Shown: positions 376-15,309 of the stretch, piece after piece
How the letters are laid out: every line of letters starts with the position of its first letter
Position numbering within the stretch: the first letter of the stretch is position 1
Source: a virus
DNA: 64,000 bases
Direction: 5' to 3' (one strand)
Virus record (IMG/VR): IMGVR_UViG_3300017917_004176
Location: 28,172-92,171 of that record
Program-made: the position numbers and the translations under genes
The notes under the pieces: model-generated
Seen by the model: the letters and a program-made list of their open reading frames with translations, nothing else
Told to the model about the DNA's origin: nothing
Database searches by the model: none

Positions 376-1791
376 ATGAAATATGATGTTTTAATCGTTG
401 GAGCAGGACCTACTGGTATTTTTGCTGCATATGAACTTATAAATAAAAGCCCCAATCTAAAAGTATTGGTTTTGGATAAAGGACATGAAATTACAAGACG
501 CAATTGTCCTATATTAGAAGGTAGAATAGAAAAATGTCCACCACCAGCTGGTAAGAAAGATTATGCTGGATGCTTGCCTGCTTGTTCGATAACAAGCGGG
601 TTTGGTGGAGCTGGAGCCTATTCTGATGGTAAGTTTAATATAACTTCTGAGTTCGGGGGATGGATGTCCGAATACCTACCCCCCTCTCAAGTTTTAGATT
701 TAATTAAGTATGTAGATAAAATTAATCTAGAAATGGGCGCACCCCTAGAAAAGACTAACCCTAATTCTCCATATATAAATGAGATAGAAAAAAAGGCTAT
801 TTCGGCTGGTCTTAAATTATTGAAGGCAGAAGTAAGACATCTTGGAACTGAGCTCAATTTAGAAATCTTAAAAAGAATATATGATTCTTTGAAAAATAGA
901 GTTGAGTTTAGATTTAAGACTGAAGTTATTGATATTGAATTTCAAGATAATCAAGTTCAATCAGTCGTCACTAATAAAGGAGAAGTTTTACACGCAGAAA
1001 CCTTTATTATATGTCCTGGTCGAGATGGTTCTATTTGGTTAAAAAACTTATTATCAAAACAAAAAGTTAAGTTTACAAACAATCAAGTAGATATTGGAGT
1101 TCGAGTTGAAACTTCTGACGTTATTATGTCTGACATTAATAAACACTTATACGAGGCCAAGTTTATATACAATACTTCCTTCGGAACAAAAGTAAGAACT
1201 TTTTGCTCAAATCCATCTGGTCATGTTGTAGTAGAAAATCATTCTGGAACAATGCTTGCAAATGGTCATTCTTATAAAGACCCTGTTTTGGCAAGTACAA
1301 ATACAAACTTTGCTCTTCTTGTCTCTCATGTTTTTACAGAGCCATTTAATCTAACTAATGAATATGCTCATGAAATTGCAAGACTTGCAAACCACCTTTC
1401 AAATGGTGGATTGATTATTCAAAAGTTTGGAGATATAATGAAAAATCGTAGAAGCACAGACAAGAGAATAAAAGAAGGGTTTGTTGAGCCAACATTAAAA
1501 GAAGCAGTACCAGGTGATTTAGGATTAGCTCTTCCATATGTGACCATGAAAAGTCTGATAGAAATGATCGAAGCTCTTGATGTAGTTACTCCAGGAATAG
1601 CTTCTGAACATACATTATTATATGGAGTAGAAGCAAAATTTTATTCTTCTCGTCCACAGGTAGACAAGACTTTTAAAACTTCCATTGATAATTTATATGT
1701 TGGTGGAGATGGCGCAGGTCTAACTCGAGGATTAGCACAAGCTAGTGCATCGGGAGTTTGGATTGCTAGAAATATATCTGAAAATAGGTGA
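376..1791 (+). CDS. NAD(P)/FAD-dependent oxidoreductase (COG2509-like)
   Basis: Rossmann GAGPTG, Cys-rich [31 protein letters not shown]-terminal GDGAGLTRG. Confidence 0.85.
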
Positions 1792-1795
1792 ACAC

Positions 1796-2995
1796 ATGAG
1801 AGATACTAAAATACTAGATTTAATAAACAAAGAAGCAAAAAGACAAAAAAATAATATAGAGCTCATAGCTTCTGAGAACTTTGTTTCTCAAGATATTTTA
1901 TTGGCTCAAGGTTCCATACTCACAAATAAGTATGCAGAAGGATATCCTGGAAGCAGATACTATGGTGGGTGTGAATGGGTTGATGAAGTAGAGCGAGTTG
2001 CAATAGAAAGAGCAAAACAATTATTCGGCGCTGAACATGTTAATGTTCAACCACATTCTGGATCACAGGCAAATACTGCAGTTTATTCTGCGCTTTTAAC
2101 TCATGGTGATGTTGTTTTGGCAATGGACCTTGCACATGGTGGACATTTAACTCATGGAAGCCCAGTTAATTTTAGTGGTAAAACATACAATTTTTATCAC
2201 TATGGAGTTGATAAAGAAACTCATTTAATTGACTATGACCAGGTAAGAGAACAAGCTAAAAGACTTCAGCCAAAAATGATAGTTGCGGGTGCAAGCGCAT
2301 ATTCAAGAATAATTGATTTTGCAAAGTTTAGAGAAATAGCAGATGAAGTAGATGCTTATTTAATGGTTGATATGGCTCATATCTCAGGTTTAGTTGCAAC
2401 AGGTGCGCATCCAAGTCCAGTACCATATGCAGACTTTGTTACGTCAACAACACATAAAACCCTAAGAGGTCCTCGCGGTGGAATAATACTAAGTAAGAAA
2501 GAATATGGTCCTGCTATAGACAAAGCGATTTTCCCTGGTATACAAGGAGGTCCTTTGGTTCATGTTATAGCAGCTAAAGCCATATGTTTCAATGAGGCAT
2601 TAGATCCATCATTTAAGTTGTATATTGACAAAGTTGTTAGGAACTCAAAAAGATTTGCTCAAAATCTTCAAAACAATGGATTTGAAATTATTTCAGGTGG
2701 AACTGATAATCATCTTTTTTTAGTTAACGTTGCTAAAAAAGGACTTACAGGAAAACGAGTAGAAGAAAGTCTAGATGAAATAGGTATAACTCTAAATAAA
2801 AATTCCATTCCTTTTGACGAACTATCTTTTAAAGTGACTAGTGGTGTTAGAATTGGAACAGCCGCCGTAACCACCAGAGGTTTTGATGCTATTGAGATAG
2901 ATGAGGTCTCAGAGATAATAACTGACTTCCTCGGCAATAAAATAACAAAACAAGAAGCTAGTGATCGAGTCAAAGACTTGACCTACGTATTCTAA
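1796..2995 (+). CDS. glyA: Serine hydroxymethyltransferase
   Basis: [27 protein letters not shown] (PLP lysine). Start moved to ATG 1796. Confidence 0.97.
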
Positions 2996-3012
2996 AAAAG
3001 GAGAACAAAAAT

Positions 3013-3504
3013 ATGGCAAATGTAAGTCCTAAGCTTGTAGAGATGTTGAATCAACAAATTGCACATGAAGGCTTAAACTCTCAAAAATATGCTTATATTG
3101 GAGCATGGTTGCAAAACAAAGGATTAAATAAAATTGGTGCACACTTTTTTCCAGGACAAACTGATGAAGAAAGAAGTCATCAAGATTTAATTCGTGATTA
3201 TTTAATTAAAAGAAATGAAAATGTTCAATCTTATGTTATTCCAGAATTTAAAATGGAACTGTCTGGCGTAACTCAAATTGCTCAATTTTATTTAGCAACA
3301 GAGCAAGAAACAACTGCAAAATTAAAAGCTATCGCACTAGCTGCTTTTGCAGAAGGAGATCTTTTAACTTTTGATTTTGCTATGGACATGGTTCATAAAC
3401 AATTAAATGAAGAAGATGAGGCTATTACTTTCTTGGATAAAGCTATTATGGCTGATGATGCTCCAGAAGTATTATTGCTTTGGGATGCAAATTTTTCACT
3501 ATAA
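3013..3504 (+). CDS. Non-heme ferritin (FtnA-like)
   Basis: 163 aa; LNQQIAHE, EERSH, EQE, QLNEEDE ferroxidase-centre pattern. Confidence 0.85.
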   Translation: MANVSPKLVEMLNQQIAHEGLNSQKYAYIGAWLQNKGLNKIGAHFFPGQTDEERSHQDLIRDYLIKRNENVQSYVIPEFKMELSGVTQIAQFYLATEQETTAKLKAIALAAFAEGDLLTFDFAMDMVHKQLNEEDEAITFLDKAIMADDAPEVLLLWDANFSL

Positions 3505-3522
3505 TATAAAGGGGGGTTTAAA

Positions 3523-4380
3523 ATGCCCTTAAAAAGAGATAGTTCTGATAAGTCTTTTAGAATGAATGTTTCTTTCTTAATAAGAGAGGGATATCTACAA
3601 GAGCAAGCTGAATTAATTGCTTTACAGATACAGAAAAAATCTGCATCTCGAGTTGTGACTGCAGAAGAAAAACTTTCTCAAATTGATTTTATTGAACTAG
3701 AAAAAATAATGGATAGTATAGAAGCAATTGAAGATGAGAATGATCAATTGAGTAAAAGATATGATATGGGTAGTATAAAAGATATTGGCCCAAGTGGAAA
3801 GCATTTAATATACTATACTACTGAAACAAAAGATCTTCAACTTCTAGAAGACGTAAAATTTTGGAATATGTTTATGGATGAATTGGATTCTTTCCCTTAT
3901 GAAACTCATATTGAAAACGAAGAAGATAGAATTATTATTGTATCGAATATTCATGAAGAAGATGAATATGAGTTTGGAAAAAAGAAAACTGGTGCTAGTA
4001 CACCAGCTCCAGCAAAAGATAGAATAAAAGGCAGTGAAAAAAATAAGCCTGGAACTGCAAAAGGTCCTGGTGGAGATATTGATATTGATGAAAGTACAGA
4101 AGCTGGATTAAAAAATAAAGTTTCTGAGCATAATGAAAAAATGAAAAAACTTGGAAAGCCAGACTGGTCTAAGGCTACCTTGGGACAGCTAAAAGCTGTG
4201 TATAGAAGAGGTGCAGGAGCATACTCACAATCTCATAGACCTGGTGTGTCTAGAGGTGCATGGGCGATGGCAAGAGTCAATGCATATTTGTATCTTTTAA
4301 AAAATGGTAGACCTAAGAGTAAAAACTATGTAACAGACAATGATTTACTTCCAGAAAAACACCCAAAATCTACAAGATAA
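3523..4380 (+). CDS. Hypothetical protein, paralog of next ORF plus a basic C-terminal domain
   Basis: N-terminal ~140 aa aligns with 4398-5006. C-terminal VYRRGAGAYSQSHRPG...WAMARVNAY...DNDLLP domain. Confidence 0.7.
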   Translation: MPLKRDSSDKSFRMNVSFLIREGYLQEQAELIALQIQKKSASRVVTAEEKLSQIDFIELEKIMDSIEAIEDENDQLSKRYDMGSIKDIGPSGKHLIYYTTETKDLQLLEDVKFWNMFMDELDSFPYETHIENEEDRIIIVSNIHEEDEYEFGKKKTGASTPAPAKDRIKGSEKNKPGTAKGPGGDIDIDESTEAGLKNKVSEHNEKMKKLGKPDWSKATLGQLKAVYRRGAGAYSQSHRPGVSRGAWAMARVNAYLYLLKNGRPKSKNYVTDNDLLPEKHPKSTR

Positions 4381-4397
4381 AAAAAGGAGGTTATAAC

Positions 4398-5006
4398 GTG
4401 CCATTAAAGAAAAGTCCATCTGATAAGGCTGCACAAGCCAATATCAGAACTTTAATTAAAGAGGGCTATCCTAGAGAGCAAGCCGTAGCTATAGCTCTAG
4501 ATATCCAAAGAAAAGAAGCTGAAAAGACAAAAGCAGAGCTAAAAACTCCGCAACAAAAAATTGAAGAGATAGATTTTAAGGCTCTTCATGACGAGCTTCT
4601 TTCTGCAAAAGCTATCAAAGATCCGCAGCATGGACACTCAACTCGCTATGCATATGTTGGAACTGTTGCCGATTTAACTCCTAGTGGAAAGCACTATATA
4701 TATTGGTCAGAAGATCACTCAAATCCAGAAATTGAAGCAGATGTTGAATTTTGGTCTATGTTTGAAGCAGAGTTAGAAAAATTTGATTTTCCTGTTTGGT
4801 TGGAAAATAATAAAGATGAAATTCTATTGGGCGCTTATTTTGCAGAAGATCAAAACTTTGTTGAACAACCTTCTGATGCTATTGAGGCTATGACAACTGA
4901 AGATTCAGTTGTAATAGATGAAGAGACTTCATATCAAGTAAATAATGAAGATGCTGAAGAAAATTCTCTTGGTGCTATATTAAATAAATTAATTACTAAA
5001 AAATAA
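4398..5006 (+). CDS. Hypothetical acidic protein, paralog of previous ORF
   Basis: AGGAGG RBS, GTG start; MPLKK...NIRTLIKEGYPREQAVAIAL and PSGKH...D.EFW.MF..EL shared motifs. Confidence 0.7.
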   Translation: MPLKKSPSDKAAQANIRTLIKEGYPREQAVAIALDIQRKEAEKTKAELKTPQQKIEEIDFKALHDELLSAKAIKDPQHGHSTRYAYVGTVADLTPSGKHYIYWSEDHSNPEIEADVEFWSMFEAELEKFDFPVWLENNKDEILLGAYFAEDQNFVEQPSDAIEAMTTEDSVVIDEETSYQVNNEDAEENSLGAILNKLITKK

Positions 5007-5024
5007 ATTTGAGGAGTAAGTAAT

Positions 5025-5285
5025 ATGAAAATTATTAAATTTTCTGCAGAATGGTGTGGCCCTTGTAAAATGTTAGATAAACAATTACCCCAAGTAATTG
5101 AGCATTTTGAATCCAAGGGAATCGCTTTAGAAATTGAAAAAATAGATATTGACTTAGACAAAGAAAAAGCTGAGCAATATGATATTATGGGAGTTCCAAC
5201 TTTAATCTTGGAACCATCTCAAAAAAGATTAGTTGGTTATATGCCAGCTGCAAAATTAATCGAGGAACTTGAAGCACAAAATTAA
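5025..5285 (+). CDS. trxA: Thioredoxin
   Basis: WCGPC active site, GVPTL cis-Pro motif. Confidence 0.9.
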   Translation: MKIIKFSAEWCGPCKMLDKQLPQVIEHFESKGIALEIEKIDIDLDKEKAEQYDIMGVPTLILEPSQKRLVGYMPAAKLIEELEAQN

Positions 5286-5314
5286 TTGACAAAATATAAT
5301 ATTTTTGATATAAT
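5286..5314 (+). promoter_or_regulatory. Sigma-A consensus promoter
   Basis: TTGACA-17-TATAAT with extended TG. Confidence 0.85.
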
Positions 5315-5353
5315 TATTATATGGTCTTATTTTTATAAAAAAGGAGAGTTATT

Positions 5354-5539
5354 ATGTCCAATAAAAAATTATTCTTTCAATGTTTCTCAATTAACTTTCA
5401 TCGTTTTCTAAAAGCAAATGGTCTAAGAGCGATGAGCAAAAATGTCCACGCAAATGGAAAAACCTTTTGGGTTTATGAGCGCACAGAACAATTTGAAAAA
5501 TGCCTTAAAATTTGGCACGATACTAAGCCCGTGAAATAG
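5354..5539 (+). CDS. Small hypothetical phage protein
   Basis: 61 aa, own promoter and AAGGAG RBS. Confidence 0.7.
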   Translation: MSNKKLFFQCFSINFHRFLKANGLRAMSKNVHANGKTFWVYERTEQFEKCLKIWHDTKPVK

Positions 5540-5540
5540 G

Positions 5541-5569
5541 TTGACAAATCCTTATATTTTTGATATAAT
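5541..5569 (+). promoter_or_regulatory. Sigma-A consensus promoter (BMP-qcrBC)
   Basis: TTGACA-17-TATAAT with extended TG. Confidence 0.85.
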
Positions 5570-5607
5570 ATAATTGTAATACAAAATAAATATAAGGAGA
5601 ATTGTCT

Positions 5608-6681
5608 ATGCAAAAACGTTTTATTCTTATCTTTTCAATCTTTGCAGCACTTTCTTTAGTTCTTTCTGCCTGTGGTGGAACGACTGAAGAAACTAAGTTT
5701 AAAGTTGGTATGGTTACTGACGCTGGTACGATTGATGACAAATCTTTCAACCAAGGAACTTGGGAAGGTGTTTTAAAAGCTGGTAGTGATTTTAATTTAG
5801 ATACTGTATATCTAAAACCAACTGGAACCACTCAAGCAGATTATCTAAGAGAAATCACAAATTTATATGATACTGGTTACAAGCTTATTGTAACACCAGG
5901 CTTTAAATTTGAAACTACTATTTTTGAAGCTCAAACAAAATATCCTGATGCAAAATTCATTTTAATTGATGGATATCCTCATGCAGGAGATTGGGCTCCA
6001 GTAGTTGGAGAGAATACAGTTTCTATCTTCTTCGCAGAACATCAATCGGGCTTCCTAGCTGGTTTGGCTACTGCACTAGAAATTGGAACTGGTAAGGTTG
6101 GTTTTATTGGCGGTATGGAAATTCCTCCAGTTCAAAAATTCAACTGGGGCTTCCAACAAGGTGTTGCTTATGCAAATGCTAATTTTGGAACTACAGTAAC
6201 TATTGCTCCAGAAGATGTTGTTTATCAAGGTTCATTCGATAATGTGCAAGCTGGTAAAACTATCGCTGCTGCTATGTATGAACGCGGAGTTAAAGTTATC
6301 TTTGCTGCTGCAGGTGGAGTTGGCGTAGGTGCTATCTCTGAAGCTAAAGATCGTGCATTAGCTGGCGAAGAAGTATGGATTGTTGGAGTAGATGTTGACC
6401 AATATGCTGAAGGAGTTTATACAGATGGTAAGTCAATCATCTTAACTTCTGCTATGAAATATATTGATCAAGCTGCGTATGATATGATTAAAGCTGAATT
6501 AGATGGAACATTCCCAGGTGGAGAAATCTTAACTTTCGATGTTACAAATAATGGAGTAGGTATTCCAAAAGAAAATCCTAATCTTTCAGCTGAAACTGTT
6601 GGCAAAGTAAATGAAGTTCTTGAATTATTAAAAGAGGGAACTGTTACTGTATCTGCTGAGCAAGGCAATTTAATTAAGTAA
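5608..6681 (+). CDS. BMP/PnrA-family ABC substrate-binding lipoprotein (nucleoside-binding type)
   Basis: Lipobox LSAC; DAGTIDDKSFNQGTWEG, IGGMEIPPV, GVDVDQ, TSAMK. Start ATG 5608 or TTG 5602. Confidence 0.9.
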   Translation: MQKRFILIFSIFAALSLVLSACGGTTEETKFKVGMVTDAGTIDDKSFNQGTWEGVLKAGSDFNLDTVYLKPTGTTQADYLREITNLYDTGYKLIVTPGFKFETTIFEAQTKYPDAKFILIDGYPHAGDWAPVVGENTVSIFFAEHQSGFLAGLATALEIGTGKVGFIGGMEIPPVQKFNWGFQQGVAYANANFGTTVTIAPEDVVYQGSFDNVQAGKTIAAAMYERGVKVIFAAAGGVGVGAISEAKDRALAGEEVWIVGVDVDQYAEGVYTDGKSIILTSAMKYIDQAAYDMIKAELDGTFPGGEILTFDVTNNGVGIPKENPNLSAETVGKVNEVLELLKEGTVTVSAEQGNLIK

Positions 6682-6687
6682 TATATC

Positions 6688-6734
6688 TTTAAGTGGTGCT
6701 ATCTGGCGGCCCACTCTAAAAAATAAAAGCCAGA
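6688..6734 (+). promoter_or_regulatory. Candidate H-type pseudoknot upstream of qcrB
   Basis: AGTGG(6692-96)/CCACT(6711-15) stem; loop TCTGGC(6702-07) is complementary to GCCAGA(6729-34) after an A-rich linker. Confidence 0.4.
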
Positions 6735-6772
6735 GTTTTATTATAAGGGCGAATTTAAAGGAGTGATGATCC

Positions 6773-7447
6773 ATGTTAAATCGCATTTATGACTGGATTG
6801 ATGAGCGCCTAGATATTACACCTATTTGGCGAGATATCGCCGATCATGAAGTCCCAGAGCATGTAAATCCCGCACATCATTTTTCTGCATTCGTATACTG
6901 CTTTGGAGGACTTACATTTTTTGTTACTGTCATACAAATATTATCTGGAATGTTCTTAACAATGTACTATGTTCCAGATATTGAAAATGCTTGGCAATCG
7001 GTTTACTATTTACAAAATGAAGTTGCATTTGGACAGATTGTTCGTGGTATGCATCATTGGGGTGCAAGTGTTGTTATTGTTATGATGTTCTTACACACAC
7101 TTAGAGTTTTCTTTCAAGGTGCCTATAAAAAACCACGCGAAATGAATTGGGTAGTAGGAGTTCTAATCTTCTTTGTTATGTTGGCCCTTGGTTTCACTGG
7201 ATATTTACTACCATGGGACATGAAAGCATTATTTGCTACAAAAGTTGGCCTGCAAATTGCAGAAGCAACACCATTTATAGGACCACTATTGAAAACATTA
7301 TTAGCTGGATCAGCAGATGTTGTTGGGGCTCAAACATTAGCACGATTCTTTGCGATCCATGTATTCTTTCTACCTGCAGCACTTTTTGCCTTATTAGCAG
7401 CTCATTTTATTTTTATTCGCAAACAAGGCATATCAGGGCCTTTGTAA
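6773..7447 (+). CDS. qcrB: Menaquinol:cytochrome c reductase cytochrome b6-type subunit
   Basis: 224 aa; YCFGG (heme ci Cys), RGMHHWGAS, LHTLRVF, GYLLPWD, FAIHVFFLP...AAHF heme b ligands. Confidence 0.97.
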   Translation: MLNRIYDWIDERLDITPIWRDIADHEVPEHVNPAHHFSAFVYCFGGLTFFVTVIQILSGMFLTMYYVPDIENAWQSVYYLQNEVAFGQIVRGMHHWGASVVIVMMFLHTLRVFFQGAYKKPREMNWVVGVLIFFVMLALGFTGYLLPWDMKALFATKVGLQIAEATPFIGPLLKTLLAGSADVVGAQTLARFFAIHVFFLPAALFALLAAHFIFIRKQGISGPL

Positions 7448-7471
7448 GTTGAATAAGGGAGATGAACATAT

Positions 7472-8233
7472 ATGCAACGCGGAAAAGGAATGAAATTTGT
7501 TGGAGATTCTCGCATATCAGCAGATCGAAAGCCAAATATACCAAAAGATTATTCAGAATATCCTGGTAAGACAGAGGCTTTTTGGCCGAATTTTCTTCTT
7601 CGAGAATGGATGGTTGGGTCAGTATTTTTAATTGGATTTTTATTTTTAACTGCCGCACATTCAGCCCCACTAGAAAGAATTGCAGATCCAACTGATACAA
7701 ACTACATACCATTACCAGACTGGTACTTTTTATTTCTATATCAGCTATTGAAATACACATATGCCTCTGGTCCATATACTGTTATTGGTGGACTAGTGCT
7801 TCCTGGAATTGCCTTTGGAGCATTACTTTTAGCGCCATTTTTAGATCGTAGTGAGCATAGACGCCCATGGAAACGACCTTTGGCTACTTCATTTATGCTA
7901 TTAGGAACAGCTGCAACTATCTACTTAACGTGGGAGTCTGTAGTAACAACAGATTGGAATAAACGAGAAGAACAGGGAAAAATTGTGGAAGAAAAAGAAA
8001 TTGATACAAAAGCAGAAGGATATATATTATTGTCGAATAATGGTTGTATATCTTGTCATGGAAATGATTTGGCGGGTGGCGCTGTTGGCCCAACATTAAT
8101 TAATACTGGACTAACTTCTGAAGAAATAAAATCAATTGCGATTAATGGAGTAGGCAATATGCCTGCTGGAATATTTAAGGGCACACAAGAAGAACTGCAA
8201 ATATTGGCTGATTATTTAGCCGAATTAAAATGA
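7472..8233 (+). CDS. qcrC: Menaquinol:cytochrome c reductase cytochrome b/c subunit
   Basis: MQRGKGMKFVGDSR start, PLPDWYFLF (PEWY equivalent), CISCH heme c motif, MPAG axial Met. Confidence 0.95.
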   Translation: MQRGKGMKFVGDSRISADRKPNIPKDYSEYPGKTEAFWPNFLLREWMVGSVFLIGFLFLTAAHSAPLERIADPTDTNYIPLPDWYFLFLYQLLKYTYASGPYTVIGGLVLPGIAFGALLLAPFLDRSEHRRPWKRPLATSFMLLGTAATIYLTWESVVTTDWNKREEQGKIVEEKEIDTKAEGYILLSNNGCISCHGNDLAGGAVGPTLINTGLTSEEIKSIAINGVGNMPAGIFKGTQEELQILADYLAELK

Positions 8234-8260
8234 TATGAATTTGAAGGGTAGAGCGCCAAA

Positions 8261-8428
8261 ATGAAGGGTAGAATGGTTAAAATATTAAAAGAACATGGAA
8301 TTAGAAGAGATCCTGAGACTCTTGAAAAACTTGAAAGAATAAAGACTCATCGAATTATAAACCTTTATTACAAAGAAATTGTAGACAAAGGGCTCTTAGA
8401 TTCAGTTGACAAAAATAAAAATTCATGA
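8261..8428 (+). CDS. Small YflJ/DUF2639-like protein (not in ORF track)
   Basis: Hand translation: MKGRMVKILKEHGIRRDPETLEKLERIKTHRIINLYYKEIVDKGLLDSVDKNKNS (55 aa); resembles Bacillus YflJ from recall. Confidence 0.55.
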   Translation: MKGRMVKILKEHGIRRDPETLEKLERIKTHRIINLYYKEIVDKGLLDSVDKNKNS

Positions 8429-8434
8429 TATAAT
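8406..8434 (+). promoter_or_regulatory. Sigma-A consensus promoter for replication genes
   Basis: TTGACA-17-TATAAT with extended TG. Confidence 0.85.
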
Positions 8435-8469
8435 AGGTATATAATTAAATAAATGGAGGAATAAATTCA

Positions 8470-9306
8470 ATGAAAAAAATGATTAACAAGACAGTAGTTG
8501 AAGGCGTTTTGCTTGAAAAAGAATTACGCTCTGGTGTGGCAGAAAAATCTGGAGTGAAGTATATTGCAGGCAAATTACATCTTGAAACTGAAGATGGCAA
8601 TACTATTTCAGTAGAGCTTTATGAAGGAGAAAAAACTTCAAAAGGTCTAGAAAATCCTAAGTTTGCTACTTTAAAAAGCATTTATGATAATGCTAAAACA
8701 AAGCATAGTGGTGCAGAAAAACCAACTCTTTTAAAGATTAATTCTGCATTTGGAACAAATGATTGGTATAATAAAGAAGGAGAGCTTGTTTGCTCTTTAG
8801 TAAATAAAGGTGGATATATTAATGTTGTATCTGCTACATCTCCTAAATCTGAATTTGAAGTAGATGTTGTTATTCAATCAGTAGTTCCTGAGATTCGCAA
8901 TGAAGTAGAAACTGGTCGCGCTTACGTTAATGGTTTAATTTTTAACTATGCTAACCAAGCCCTTCCTGCTAAGTTTGTTGTTGATAATCCTAAAGGTGTA
9001 GCTTTCTTTGCTGCTCTGCCAAAAAATACTTTTACTCGCGTTTGGGGAAAACAAGTTAACTCTAGTGTAACTTCTGAGCGCATGGAAGAGTCTGCTTTTG
9101 GCGATGCTAAAGTTGCAAAAACTTCTTATACTCGTAAAGAGTTTGTTATTACTGGTGCACAAGTTGAACCATATGATGACATGCAATTAACTGCAGATGA
9201 ACTTAATACTGCTATTCAAAATCGTAATTTAGCTATGGCAGAATTAAAAAATCGAACAGTATCAAAAGAAACTTCAAAACCAGCTTTTGGTGGATTCTCA
9301 TTCTAA
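8470..9306 (+). CDS. Putative single-stranded DNA-binding protein (tandem OB-like)
   Basis: INKTVVEGVL start, two beta-rich halves, aromatic C-terminal tail, upstream of Sak4-like ATPase. Confidence 0.55.
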   Translation: MKKMINKTVVEGVLLEKELRSGVAEKSGVKYIAGKLHLETEDGNTISVELYEGEKTSKGLENPKFATLKSIYDNAKTKHSGAEKPTLLKINSAFGTNDWYNKEGELVCSLVNKGGYINVVSATSPKSEFEVDVVIQSVVPEIRNEVETGRAYVNGLIFNYANQALPAKFVVDNPKGVAFFAALPKNTFTRVWGKQVNSSVTSERMEESAFGDAKVAKTSYTRKEFVITGAQVEPYDDMQLTADELNTAIQNRNLAMAELKNRTVSKETSKPAFGGFSF

Positions 9307-9402
9307 TATTTAGGGCGAAGAAATTCGCCCCTAGATTTGAGGGCTTTAAGATTTAAAGTCTTGAAATGTAGTAAAAATATAAAAGAAAAGGTAGGAAAAA
9401 CT

Positions 9403-10371
9403 ATGTCAATTTTTGATATTAAGCCGCATCAAGTAAGTCGAGATTTGCGTGGATACTCTGTATTGTTTTATGGAGAACCAAAATCTGGTAAGACTACAAC
9501 AGCTTCTAAGTTTCCAAAGTCGCTCATCATTGCCTTTGAAAAAGGTTATGCTGCACTTCCTGGAGTTAAAGCTGCACCAGTTAATAGCTGGGGAGACTTC
9601 TTAAAGATTCTTCGTGAATTAAAAGATCCACGAGCAAAAGATCTTTATGAAACTATTATCATTGATACTGCCGACATCGCTTATGATTATTGTGAGCAAT
9701 ATGTTTGTAATATGAATGGTGTTGACGCTATCAATAAAATTCCTTTTGGTGGAGGATATTCTCAAGTTTCAAAAGAGTTTGATTCTAAGCTTCGTACAAT
9801 TATTCAACTAGATTTCGGTTTGGTTTTAATTTCACATGCTACTGATAAAACTTTCACTTCTGAAACTGGAGAAGAATACCACAAAATCGTTCCAACTTTA
9901 CCAAATAAGGCTCGCTTAATTGTTGGTCGTATGTCTGATATTATTGGATATTCTCGTGGAGTAGAAACTGCAGAAGGCAATAAAACTATGTTGTTTATGC
10001 GTGGAACTCAACGATTTGAAGCAGGATCCCGCTTCAAGCATACTCCAGATGCTATCGAATTTACTTATCATAATCTAGTAGATGCTATTGCAGATGCTAT
10101 TGATAAGCAAGCTCAAGAAGATGGAGGTCAGTTTGTTGTCGAGTCAAAAGACAACATCTATAAAAAAGTCGATTTAGACTTTGACTTTCTCATGGAATCA
10201 TTTCAAGAAATCGTTAATGACTTACTTGAAAAAGATAAGGCAAAATACTTCCCTCGCATTACAGAAGTTGTGGAGCGCCATTTGGGTAAAGGCAAAAAAG
10301 CCAGTGAAATGACTCGTGATCAAGCCGAACTATTAGATATTATCGTTTATGAATTAAGAGAATTGTTATAA
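9403..10371 (+). CDS. AAA_24/Sak4-like recombination ATPase
   Basis: YGEPKSGKTT Walker A, IIIDT Walker B, LISH. Start reassigned to ATG 9403. Confidence 0.8.
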   Translation: MSIFDIKPHQVSRDLRGYSVLFYGEPKSGKTTTASKFPKSLIIAFEKGYAALPGVKAAPVNSWGDFLKILRELKDPRAKDLYETIIIDTADIAYDYCEQYVCNMNGVDAINKIPFGGGYSQVSKEFDSKLRTIIQLDFGLVLISHATDKTFTSETGEEYHKIVPTLPNKARLIVGRMSDIIGYSRGVETAEGNKTMLFMRGTQRFEAGSRFKHTPDAIEFTYHNLVDAIADAIDKQAQEDGGQFVVESKDNIYKKVDLDFDFLMESFQEIVNDLLEKDKAKYFPRITEVVERHLGKGKKASEMTRDQAELLDIIVYELRELL

Positions 10372-12487: not shown

Positions 12488-13570
12488 GTGGTTTTTATCT
12501 ACGATAAAGACCTAGTAAAAATAGAATTAAAAACCGAAGAAATCCTTAGAATACTGCAAAAGCTTGGTGCGGCAGAGCCATATACGAAAGATGGAAATAT
12601 TGTTCTTGAAACTATATGTCACAACCCACCAGGCGAAGGCAGTAATAAATTATACTATTATCCAAATACAGGATTATTTAAATGCTATACTCATTGTGGC
12701 GAAAGCTTTGATATTTATGAGTTAATAATAAAAAATAATAAGGCTTCTAATGTTTCAGAAGCAATGAAGTGGATAGATAGAAATATAAAAGGATTTTCTA
12801 TTAATCAAAATGATTCAGAAGAATGGCAAATAACAAAAAGCTATAGAGATTTGTTTTCTATAGAACGAGGATTCAAAGAACAAGATATAATAATTTATGA
12901 TAAAAAAGTTTTGTCTGTCTTGCCCTTCTATATTATTAAAGATTGGCTTGATGAAGGTATCTCTGTTCGAGCTATGCAACAATTTGAAATTAAGTTTAAT
13001 CCAGTAAATAATTCAGTTATTATTCCACACTTTGATATAGATGGAAATCTAATTGGAATTAGACAGCGAACACTAGTAAAAGAAGATGAGATATATGGTA
13101 AATATAAACCTGCCACGATAGATGGTAAAATGTATAATCATCCTTTATCTGTTGCTGCTTACGGCCTAAACTTAAATAAAGATAATATTAAAAAAAGTAA
13201 AATAGCTATTATCTTTGAAGGAGAAAAGTCAGTTCTTCTTTATGAAAGTTATTTTGGCAGAAAGAGAAATATATCTGTTGCTTGTTGTGGATCATCAATT
13301 TCAGAATCTCAAATAGATGAATTGATAAAAGCAGGCGCGGAAGAAATTTGTATTGCTTTTGATAAAGAGTTTCACTTATTGGGTGATTCAGACTATCAAC
13401 TTCAAGTAAAACATTTAAATCATATATTTAACAAGTATAAAGAAAAAGCTTTAATTAGTTTTATATTTGACAAGGAAAATAAGCTTGGTTATAAAGATGC
13501 CCCTATAGATAGAGGTGAAGATACTTTCATTTATCTTTTTAATCAAAGATTTACATTGAAAGAGGAATGA
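12488..13570 (+). CDS. DNA primase (Zn-binding + TOPRIM)
   Basis: CHN...FKCYTHC, IIPH, FEGEKS, AFDKE, KDAP. Confidence 0.85.
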   Translation: MVFIYDKDLVKIELKTEEILRILQKLGAAEPYTKDGNIVLETICHNPPGEGSNKLYYYPNTGLFKCYTHCGESFDIYELIIKNNKASNVSEAMKWIDRNIKGFSINQNDSEEWQITKSYRDLFSIERGFKEQDIIIYDKKVLSVLPFYIIKDWLDEGISVRAMQQFEIKFNPVNNSVIIPHFDIDGNLIGIRQRTLVKEDEIYGKYKPATIDGKMYNHPLSVAAYGLNLNKDNIKKSKIAIIFEGEKSVLLYESYFGRKRNISVACCGSSISESQIDELIKAGAEEICIAFDKEFHLLGDSDYQLQVKHLNHIFNKYKEKALISFIFDKENKLGYKDAPIDRGEDTFIYLFNQRFTLKEE

Positions 13571-15309
13571 AAATGAAATATGCTTTAATATCAGAACCAA
13601 AACATAATTTAACTACTATAGAACAAATATTAGTTAATAGGGGAATTGAGATTTCAAAAATCAATAATTATATAAGAACAACTGATGATGTTTTATATAG
13701 TCCCCTATTATTAAACAATATAGAAAATGGAATTGACATTTTACTGAGTCACTTAGAAAAAAAATCTAAGATACTTTTACAACTTGATTCTGATTGTGAT
13801 GGATATACATCTGGCGCATTGCTATTAAATTATTTATATGCAGTTAATTCTGAATGGTTAAATAATATAGATTTCAGAGTTCATTCTGGAAAAGAACATG
13901 GTTTAGACTTTGCGCTAATTGAATCATTAACATCTGATGACTATCAATTAATTCTTGTGCCAGATGCAAGCTCAAATGAATATGAAATTCATGCCCTACT
14001 TAAATCTAAGAAAATAGATTGTTTAATTATTGACCACCATGAAGCTCCTGCTCAATCTGAAAATGCGATTGTTATAAATCCCCAATTAGATGACTACCCA
14101 AATAAAAATCTCAGTGCTGTTGGAGTTGTTTATAAATTTTGTAAACTATTAGACTCAAAACTCGGTGTAGATTTAGCAGACAATTTTTTAGATTTAGTTG
14201 CTCTTGGAATGGTTGCAGATATGATGGATATAAGAGAGCTTGAAACTAAGCATTTAATTTCTAAGGGTATTATTAATATAAGAAATCCTTTTATTAAAAG
14301 CTTAATCGAAAGACAATCTAATTCTTTAAAAGATGGATTAAGTCCAAATAGTTTTGGTTTTTATATTGCACCTTTAATAAATGCAACTATAAGAATAGGA
14401 ACAGAAGAAGAAAAGCTAACTATGTTTAAAGGCTTTTTAGATAAGTATGCTAATGAAGAAATGGATTCAACAAAGCGAGGCGCCAAGCCAGGAGAAACTG
14501 AAACGTTTGCTGATAGAGCTGCTAGACAGTCTATGAATATAAAAAATCGACAAGCAAAAATGAGAGACGAAGGTATAGCTTTAATTGAAGAGATTATTCA
14601 ACGAGAATCTTTAAATGACAATAAAGTTTTAGTTGTTGTTCTAGACCAAGATATAGATAAAAATTTATCTGGTTTAATAGCAAATAAAATAATGTCTAAA
14701 TACAAAAAACCAGTTTTAATTTTAAGAAACAATAATGAAACTTTAAATGGCTCTGCAAGAGGATATGAGAAGTCTGAGTTGCGCGACTTTAAATTATTCT
14801 TAAATGATTCTGGATTAGTAAATTATGCAGAGGGCCACGCTAACGCGTTTGGAGCGGGAATAGATAAGGATAAGCTTGAAAACTTTATCGAATATTCTAA
14901 TGAACAATTAAAAGATTTTGATTTTAGTGCAACCCATTTAGTTGATTTTATTTGGGACTCTGAGACTCTAACTTCCCAAGATATTTTTGATGTAGCGAAT
15001 CTTAGAAGTTTTTGGGGCAAAGGTGTAGAAGAAGCTTTAATTTGTATCAAGGGATTAAAAGTAACTAAAGATAGAATTGCATTGCTTTCTCCAGATAAAA
15101 GCCCTACAATAAAGATTAATTTTAAAGGAATTGATTTTATTAAATTTGGTTCGAGTCAACAAGAATTTGAATCTCTTCGTGCTGATACTGGATATATAGA
15201 AATCGATATAGTTGGAAAATGCTCTATAAATGAATGGAATGGTAATATCACAGCCCAAGTTTTTATTGAAGACTATGCAATCAAAGATACTAAGGCTTGG
15301 TATTTCTAA
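13567..15309 (+). CDS. recJ: RecJ-like ssDNA exonuclease (DHH/DHHA1)
   Basis: DSDCDG, IDHH, ALGMVADMM, GSARG, GHANAFG. Confidence 0.92.
   Translation: MKMKYALISEPKHNLTTIEQILVNRGIEISKINNYIRTTDDVLYSPLLLNNIENGIDILLSHLEKKSKILLQLDSDCDGYTSGALLLNYLYAVNSEWLNNIDFRVHSGKEHGLDFALIESLTSDDYQLILVPDASSNEYEIHALLKSKKIDCLIIDHHEAPAQSENAIVINPQLDDYPNKNLSAVGVVYKFCKLLDSKLGVDLADNFLDLVALGMVADMMDIRELETKHLISKGIINIRNPFIKSLIERQSNSLKDGLSPNSFGFYIAPLINATIRIGTEEEKLTMFKGFLDKYANEEMDSTKRGAKPGETETFADRAARQSMNIKNRQAKMRDEGIALIEEIIQRESLNDNKVLVVVLDQDIDKNLSGLIANKIMSKYKKPVLILRNNNETLNGSARGYEKSELRDFKLFLNDSGLVNYAEGHANAFGAGIDKDKLENFIEYSNEQLKDFDFSATHLVDFIWDSETLTSQDIFDVANLRSFWGKGVEEALICIKGLKVTKDRIALLSPDKSPTIKINFKGIDFIKFGSSQQEFESLRADTGYIEIDIVGKCSINEWNGNITAQVFIEDYAIKDTKAWYF

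Follow-up and report, generated by a model that had tools for sequence, protein, structure and literature searches.

The 64-kb window analysed here, bases 28172-92171 of the 92,171-bp IMG/VR viral record IMGVR_UViG_3300017917_004176, contains a plus-strand cassette of three genes: one for a BMP/PnrA-family lipoprotein, followed by qcrB and qcrC, which encode two core subunits of the respiratory menaquinol:cytochrome c reductase. QcrB is the cytochrome b6 subunit and QcrC is a subunit IV fused to a c-type cytochrome; the gene for the Rieske protein, qcrA, does not accompany them. The record is metagenome-derived and of linear topology class, and CheckV estimates its completeness at ~60%. Along the plus strand the order is thioredoxin, a 61-aa gene, BMP, qcrB, qcrC, a 55-aa open reading frame (ORF) and a replication module (Table 1).

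Genes of the cassette

The qcrB and qcrC ORFs are intact, free of internal stops and preceded by strong ribosome-binding sites. QcrB matches the NCBIfam 'cytochrome b6' model NF002990 (413.9 bits against a cut-off of 325) and PF00033 (4.6e-49; 167 bits against a cut-off of 27.2), and its residues C43, H94, H108, H196 and H211 all fall in columns that are invariant across 25 sequences. The four histidines are the haem b ligands, with spacings of 14 and 15 residues as in b6, and C43 is the equivalent of the covalent haem ci cysteine of Bacillus subtilis. QcrC scores above the cut-offs of both PF00032 (subunit IV) and PF13442 (cytochrome c). The PDWY motif of its Qo site (P82-D83-W84-Y85), its CxxCH motif (C192-x-x-C195-H196) and its Met ligand (M230) likewise lie in invariant columns. 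The nearest solved structures are those of cyanobacterial and chloroplast cytochrome b6 and subunit IV, together with Bacillus cytochrome c-553 for the C-terminal domain of QcrC; the structure collection searched holds no Bacillus b6c complex. An initial annotation of this DNA, made from the letters alone, had described QcrB and QcrC as intact and full-length with these named residues, and the reading frames, family scores and invariant cofactor columns all agree with it.

The first gene of the cassette encodes a member of PF02608 (227.5 bits against a cut-off of 24.1). Translation probably begins at the ATG at 5608, which has AAGGAG 8 nucleotides upstream, and the N-terminus carries a lipoprotein signal with the lipobox LSAC, ending LSAC-GG. 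BMP/PnrA-family proteins are the solute-binding proteins of nucleoside-type ABC transporters. Co-transcribed with the qcr genes, the phage protein would be a lone subunit requiring the permease and ATPase of a host nucleoside-type ABC importer.

The cassette has much in common with the qcrABC operons of Bacillaceae, namely orthologous QcrB and QcrC of the same lengths, the haem ligands, the haem ci cysteine, the PDWY and CxxCH motifs, and the order qcrB-qcrC. It differs in its surroundings. In the bacteria qcrA stands directly upstream of qcrB in 80 of the 80 loci retrieved with QcrC, and the nearest partial metagenome relative inspected (L054) also reads qcrA-qcrB-qcrC, whereas the phage cassette lacks this arrangement and is not a complete qcrABC operon. 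In the five bacterial operons inspected, only a few bases separate the end of qcrA from qcrB, and downstream of qcrC there is an intrinsic terminator. The phage cassette adjoins neither, having been cut to within a few bases of its coding ends; no terminator-like site is predicted after qcrC, and the 55-aa ORF, which begins 27 nucleotides past the qcrC stop, occupies the terminator's place. What precedes qcrB in the phage is instead a BMP gene behind a promoter of the phage backbone. No BMP gene stands beside qcr in 80 bacterial or 54 metagenome loci. A structured RNA or terminator in the 91-nucleotide BMP-qcrB spacer was also considered and rejected, the spacer folding no better than shuffled sequences (z = 0.72).

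The initial annotation had remarked on the lack of qcrA upstream and had proposed looking for it, and for cytochrome oxidase genes, in the rest of the genome. No Rieske domain (PF00355) is encoded in the whole 92,171-bp record, itself ~60% complete, and tblastn with bacterial QcrA revealed no remnant of the gene in the record, the BMP-qcrB spacer included. COX1 and CcsA/ResC-type genes are also absent from the record, other maturation genes not having been searched for.

Table 1. Features in and around the cassette, with positions in the 64-kb window.
Feature	Position	Strand	Remarks
FAD (flavin adenine dinucleotide)-dependent oxidoreductase	376-1791		
Serine hydroxymethyltransferase (SHMT)	1745-2995		PF00464, 559 bits
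Ferritin/Dps-like protein	3013-3504		
DUF5824-type paralogues (two, diverged)	3523-4380 and 4398-5006		
CGPC thioredoxin	5025-5285	+	
Perfect promoter	5286	+	
61-aa backbone gene	5354-5539	+	left border of slot
Sigma-A consensus promoter	5541-5569	+	TTGACA-17-TATAAT with TG extension, 12/12 consensus
BMP/PnrA-family lipoprotein	5608-6681	+	first cassette gene; PF02608
qcrB, cytochrome b6 subunit	6773-7447	+	224 aa
qcrC, subunit IV fused to c-type cytochrome	7472-8233	+	253 aa
55-aa ORF	8261-8428	+	function unknown; between qcrC and next promoter
Backbone consensus promoter (perfect)	8406-8434	+	right border of slot
278-aa backbone gene	8470-9306	+	opens replication module; no family match
Perfect promoter	16019	+	
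Perfect promoter	21845	+	
Perfect promoter	61474-61446	-	

The cargo slot and its phage

The IMG/VR contig L001 matches the gene order on either side of the cassette. On the left flank the identities to L001 are 69% for ribonucleotide reductase, 80% for a DUF5824 protein and 90% for the 61-aa protein, which has a weak Pfam match to DUF5659 (E 5e-4, below the cut-off); on the right they are 63% for the 278-aa protein, 78% for an AAA_24 protein, 63% for a DnaB-like protein and 55% for a RecJ-like protein. Between the 61-aa and 278-aa genes L001 carries ~5.7 kb of other cargo (4374-9923), comprising genes for a helix-turn-helix protein, two unknown proteins, a GT17-like glycosyltransferase, a ferritin-like protein and two GT2-TPR glycosyltransferases. 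In a DNA alignment the promoter ahead of the cassette is kept in L001, immediately after the stop of the DUF5659 gene, and the two phages cease to be similar where the first cargo gene has its ribosome-binding site. The promoter that follows the cassette is conserved in L001 as well, before the homologous 278-aa gene. Since the promoters are conserved and the cargo differs, the cassette, by this comparison, occupies a variable cargo slot bounded by two conserved backbone promoters, and the promoter from which it would be read is, on the same alignment, part of the phage backbone.

The initial annotation had placed the qcr genes downstream of a phage-style sigma-A promoter and a BMP gene, and both are there: the promoter agrees with the consensus at 12 of 12 positions. 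Perfect TTGACA-17-TATAAT promoters number six in the window, where chance alone would give 0.05. The TG extension is present in at least the three around the cassette, the two to the left of it have a nearly identical spacer end (TTTTTGATATAAT), and the cassette promoter is of the same type as those of the replication genes.

The wider setting is also that of a phage. The 1263-aa DNA polymerase of the window has a match in PHROG 405 and shares 44-45% identity with its counterparts in SPbeta-like Bacillus phages and in Enterococcus phages of 134-142 kb; the tape measure and RecJ genes match PHROGs as well. The replication module runs from the 278-aa gene through AAA_24, DnaB-like, RecJ-like and helicase genes to the polymerase, while the minus-strand half of the window encodes a tape measure protein of 1505 aa along with a long block of phage-family proteins. 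In the window ARAGORN detected no tRNA. Polymerase type, phage-family block, L001 synteny on both sides and junction promoters agree, and at the level of sequence they confirm what the initial annotation had supposed, that BMP-qcrB-qcrC resides in a genuine phage. It is probably a large Bacillaceae phage related to the SPbeta-like phages.

The cassette could also be an artefact, either an assembly chimera, which the initial annotation had named as something that would undo the interpretation, or host contamination in the viral bin. The contig is metagenome-derived, linear and ~60% complete, and viromes are known to hold cellular contamination (PMC3877843). Against this, the 2.7-kb cassette lies far from the contig ends, 34-36 kb into the 92-kb record (with the two ends ~34 kb and 56 kb away), genes and promoters in L001 order flank it on both sides, no host flanks surround it, and its codon use is within the phage range. 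qcrB and qcrC have viral flanks on both sides and stand away from a contig end, as is asked of auxiliary metabolic genes. The artefact was rejected on the synteny with L001 and the promoters conserved at both junctions, with which the junctions coincide, and we regard it as very unlikely indeed.

The affinity of the polymerase also raises the prospect of lysogenic conversion, in which expression from the prophage of a temperate SPbeta-like phage would improve the respiration or nucleoside uptake of the lysogen. Temperate SPbeta-like phages have polymerases of this type, and cargo slots with their own promoters are typical of morons. However, the record (~60% complete) yielded neither a tyrosine integrase nor a serine recombinase, the promoter type of the cassette is one common to replication genes, and a host that already has qcrABC would gain little in the steady state from a second B and C without A. 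Lysogenic conversion therefore seems improbable.

Upstream of the cassette, host-like metabolic genes form a run from 376 to 5285 (Table 1), and a class II ribonucleotide reductase gene, assigned by homology to that of L001, lies upstream. The oxidoreductase, SHMT and thioredoxin have no detected homologue in the part of L001 examined, and for this reason the whole stretch between the ribonucleotide reductase and replication genes looks hypervariable. Taken with the cassette, these genes of nucleotide and cofactor metabolism (ribonucleotide reductase, SHMT, FAD oxidoreductase, ferritin/Dps and thioredoxin) fit a general auxiliary-metabolism region. Upstream of the window, a 206-aa ORF at record positions 12991-13611 has a GC content of 0.467, or 0.478 at third codon positions (GC3), against a genome gene average GC3 of 0.20; from its composition it may be a recent foreign gene.

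Origin and selective constraint

QcrB is 85-91% identical to Bacillaceae QcrB. The best named bacterial match of QcrC is at 74-75% and the best overall at 82% (P0122, on a 2.2-kb metagenome contig); over QcrB and QcrC combined, the best bacterial identity is 82%. In a tree of the two proteins the phage falls within the Bacillaceae as the weakly supported sister (Shimodaira-Hasegawa-like approximate likelihood ratio test, SH-aLRT, 82) of L100, near L065, each of these being an uncultured Bacillaceae metagenome-assembled genome (MAG). The terminal branch of the phage is the longest in the tree (0.26, against 0.20 for L100). GC3 is 0.25 for qcrB and 0.21 for qcrC, the mean of the phage genes being 0.198 with a standard deviation of 0.066, and codon use is within the phage range. 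Judged from these comparisons, the cassette is shown to descend from an unsequenced low-GC Bacillaceae lineage. As pointers to the host, the genomes behind L100, L065 and two further loci (L064 and L116) gave no lead: they lack a related prophage polymerase (identities of 29-31%, or 37% in one short piece), and their BMP matches reach 70% at most.

The BMP protein has a different set of relatives. Three proteins (P0362, P0242 and P0361) with identities, as a set, of 97, 92 and 91% are encoded on metagenome contigs of 63-88 kb, which may be related phages. Matches in named bacteria reach ~70-72% at most, with Spirochaetes and Clostridiales among the top ones, and in 28 genomes of the family of L065 they reach 72% at most. 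A scan of IMG/VR for BMP gave no matches. Genes of the BMP family are found occasionally in cultured phages, for example Lactobacillus phage Ldl1 and Enterococcus phage Efs 1-1-1, but at 30-36% identity and never linked to qcr.

Comparison with the five nearest bacterial loci tested shows saturated synonymous sites (proportion of synonymous differences, pS, 0.64-0.87), while non-synonymous divergence (dN) ranges over 0.06-0.09 in qcrB and 0.19-0.24 in qcrC. The ratio of non-synonymous to synonymous divergence (omega), where computable, is ~0.04-0.16, equal to that of the bacterial pair L100-L065. Invariant columns were defined among 79 bacterial orthologues. QcrC keeps all of them (100/100): 68 of its 253 columns differ from the bacterial consensus, and 0 of these 68 changes fall in an invariant column, where 27 would be expected (P = 6e-19). 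QcrB keeps 141 of 144, with 3 of its 22 differing columns among the invariant ones (14 expected, P = 4e-7), and each of the three is a conservative change (K4R, L100V and L124M). The pattern of substitution confirms strong purifying constraint on both phage proteins, and the two genes presumably encode functional proteins. Relaxed selection, which the initial annotation had named as something that would undo its reading, and decay to a pseudogene are both rejected on the low omega and the kept invariant columns.

Two of the bacterial loci are irregular in their own right. L093 (Bacillus sp. V59.32b) has 20 changes at otherwise invariant columns, and qcrB appears as two tblastn pieces both there (5272-5944) and in L105, from an uncultured Bacillaceae MAG (5257-5930), which suggests a frameshift or sequencing error.

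Proposed role and its precedents

We propose that BMP-qcrB-qcrC is a host-derived auxiliary cassette whose products form hybrid complexes with host QcrA and keep up the capacity of a respiratory branch, a reading to which we give an even chance. Host sigma-A RNA polymerase would read the cassette, starting at the consensus promoter at 5541. QcrB and QcrC would enter the host membrane and acquire host haem, with QcrC matured by the cytochrome c system of the host, and the two would then dock with host-made Rieske QcrA to give a hybrid menaquinol:cytochrome c reductase (b6c). The benefit would be a bc-caa3 branch whose capacity is kept or raised while host gene expression falls, making the cassette a respiratory counterpart of cyanophage psbA/psbD. 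We infer both the function, hybrid assembly that sustains proton-motive force and ATP, and its adaptive value.

Several observations weigh against this proposal. No other qcrB or qcrC was found in 50,697 GenBank phages, in IMG/VR pattern scans (based on single proteins as well as on alignments) or in PHROGs. The genes do not recur in related phages, the nearest relative, L001, having other cargo; with a single contig, long-term retention in phages is not supported. The 90% protein cluster of QcrC consists of this contig alone, whereas BMP has its 91-97% relatives on other large contigs. The phage branch is no faster than that of its sister, dN to the outgroup L065 being 0.140 for the phage and 0.143 for L100, and the GC3 of L100 and L065 (0.19-0.28) fits the cassette as well as that of the phage does. 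Furthermore, the record is ~60% complete, and qcrA could therefore lie elsewhere in the genome; and should the QcrA of the host be limiting, additional B and C would give no gain in capacity.

Much of this would be expected if the genes were a neutral passenger, gained recently by illegitimate recombination from an unsampled low-GC Bacillaceae host, with the constraint having accrued in bacteria. Such a passenger would account for a phage that is alone in carrying qcrBC, for a QcrC cluster of one contig beside a BMP found on several, for GC3 and codon fit equal to those of the nearest bacterial lineages, for the absence of rate acceleration relative to L100, and for a slot that clearly turns over between relatives. 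Amelioration had been considered as proof of long residence and was dropped, L100 and L065 having equally low GC3; because the codon make-up fits the nearest bacteria as well as the phage, a fairly recent capture from an unsampled host may have taken place, and the sequence data fit it and long phage residence alike. A recently acquired passenger is harder to reconcile with the trimming of both ends close to the coding sequences, the loss of terminator and qcrA and the backbone promoter in place. Nor is any known bacterium above 82% over both proteins, synonymous sites are saturated, and the frames are intact behind strong ribosome-binding sites. We consider neutral carriage somewhat unlikely.

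The choice of subunits suggests a further possibility. In B. subtilis, QcrA is a main source of lethal superoxide after membrane depolarisation; deletion of qcrB or qcrC sensitises cells, whereas deletion of qcrA protects them, and on depolarisation QcrA delocalises while QcrB and QcrC do not (PMC11317493). The cassette might accordingly serve to sequester the Rieske protein, raising the ratio of QcrBC to QcrA such that no host Rieske is left unpaired, with smaller superoxide bursts and less premature host death once infection depolarises the membrane. B and C would then be carried without A because unpaired Rieske makes superoxide. The phage indeed has exactly the two protective subunits, no qcrA and a strong consensus promoter, but the idea is extrapolated from a paper on stationary-phase, valinomycin-treated cells and is compatible with hybrid assembly rather than exclusive of it. 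As the explanation for the cassette it appears unlikely. The two benefits, replenishment of core subunits and pairing of the Rieske protein, could operate together. Under the proposal of hybrid complexes with host QcrA, a broader statement can be made tentatively, at a little below an even chance: a phage of aerobic Firmicutes would encode both membrane-core subunits, deliberately leave out the Rieske subunit and use the pair during infection to remodel the host bc complex, for proton-motive force or for superoxide silencing, which would make this the first virus-encoded complex III core and a respiratory parallel to psbA/psbD.

The closest precedents are the psbA/psbD, petE, petF, PTOX and ndh genes of cyanophages, which embody the same idea of host-derived subunits of an energy-converting membrane complex that need host partners. 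A review of cyanophages lists petE and petF as b6f-related genes and no core petB or petD (PMC12801897). What sets the present phage, one of heterotrophic Firmicutes, apart is that its genes encode core subunits (b6 and IV) of a respiratory complex. For respiration itself, Roux et al. 2013 assigned virome reads to K00412, the cytochrome b of complex III (7 reads in 2 viromes, with no genomic context), and saw a hint of virus-encoded parts of oxidative phosphorylation, a function that, as they noted, had never been reported for any complete viral genome (PMC3877843). In contrast to those reads, the genes described here sit on a 92-kb phage contig with both junctions resolved.

According to the initial annotation these genes are not known to have been described in Bacillus phages; the search of IMG/VR and GenBank phages that it advised yielded no other carrier. 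The sole cytochrome b match in GenBank phages, in a Helicobacter prophage record (PQ159902.1, 36335-36760), occupies the last 430 bases and was set aside as probably host flank. Among plasmids, qcrBC matched only one chromosome-sized 5.5-Mb record and one 733-kb replicon. No paper describing qcrB or qcrC in a phage, or phage genes for menaquinol:cytochrome c reductase, was found in the literature searched, and no prior description in the phage collections. What is new here is therefore the occurrence of core subunits of a respiratory complex, as a partial set, among phage auxiliary metabolic genes.

Phage control of host energy conversion is well documented for photosynthesis; for respiration the evidence found consists mostly of reads or short contigs without genomic context, and this contig provides a clean, context-resolved example of a phage with core subunits of complex III. 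The phage genes are close enough to those of B. subtilis for complementation, haem staining and assays of reactive oxygen species to be feasible in a standard strain. The choice of subunits (b6 and IV/c, without the Rieske protein) offers a testable clue as to the part of the complex that is limiting in infection, and it provides a link to recent work on the Bacillus Rieske protein as a source of lethal superoxide once separated from QcrBC. The carriage of two of the three core genes suggests that this phage tunes the respiration of its host during infection.

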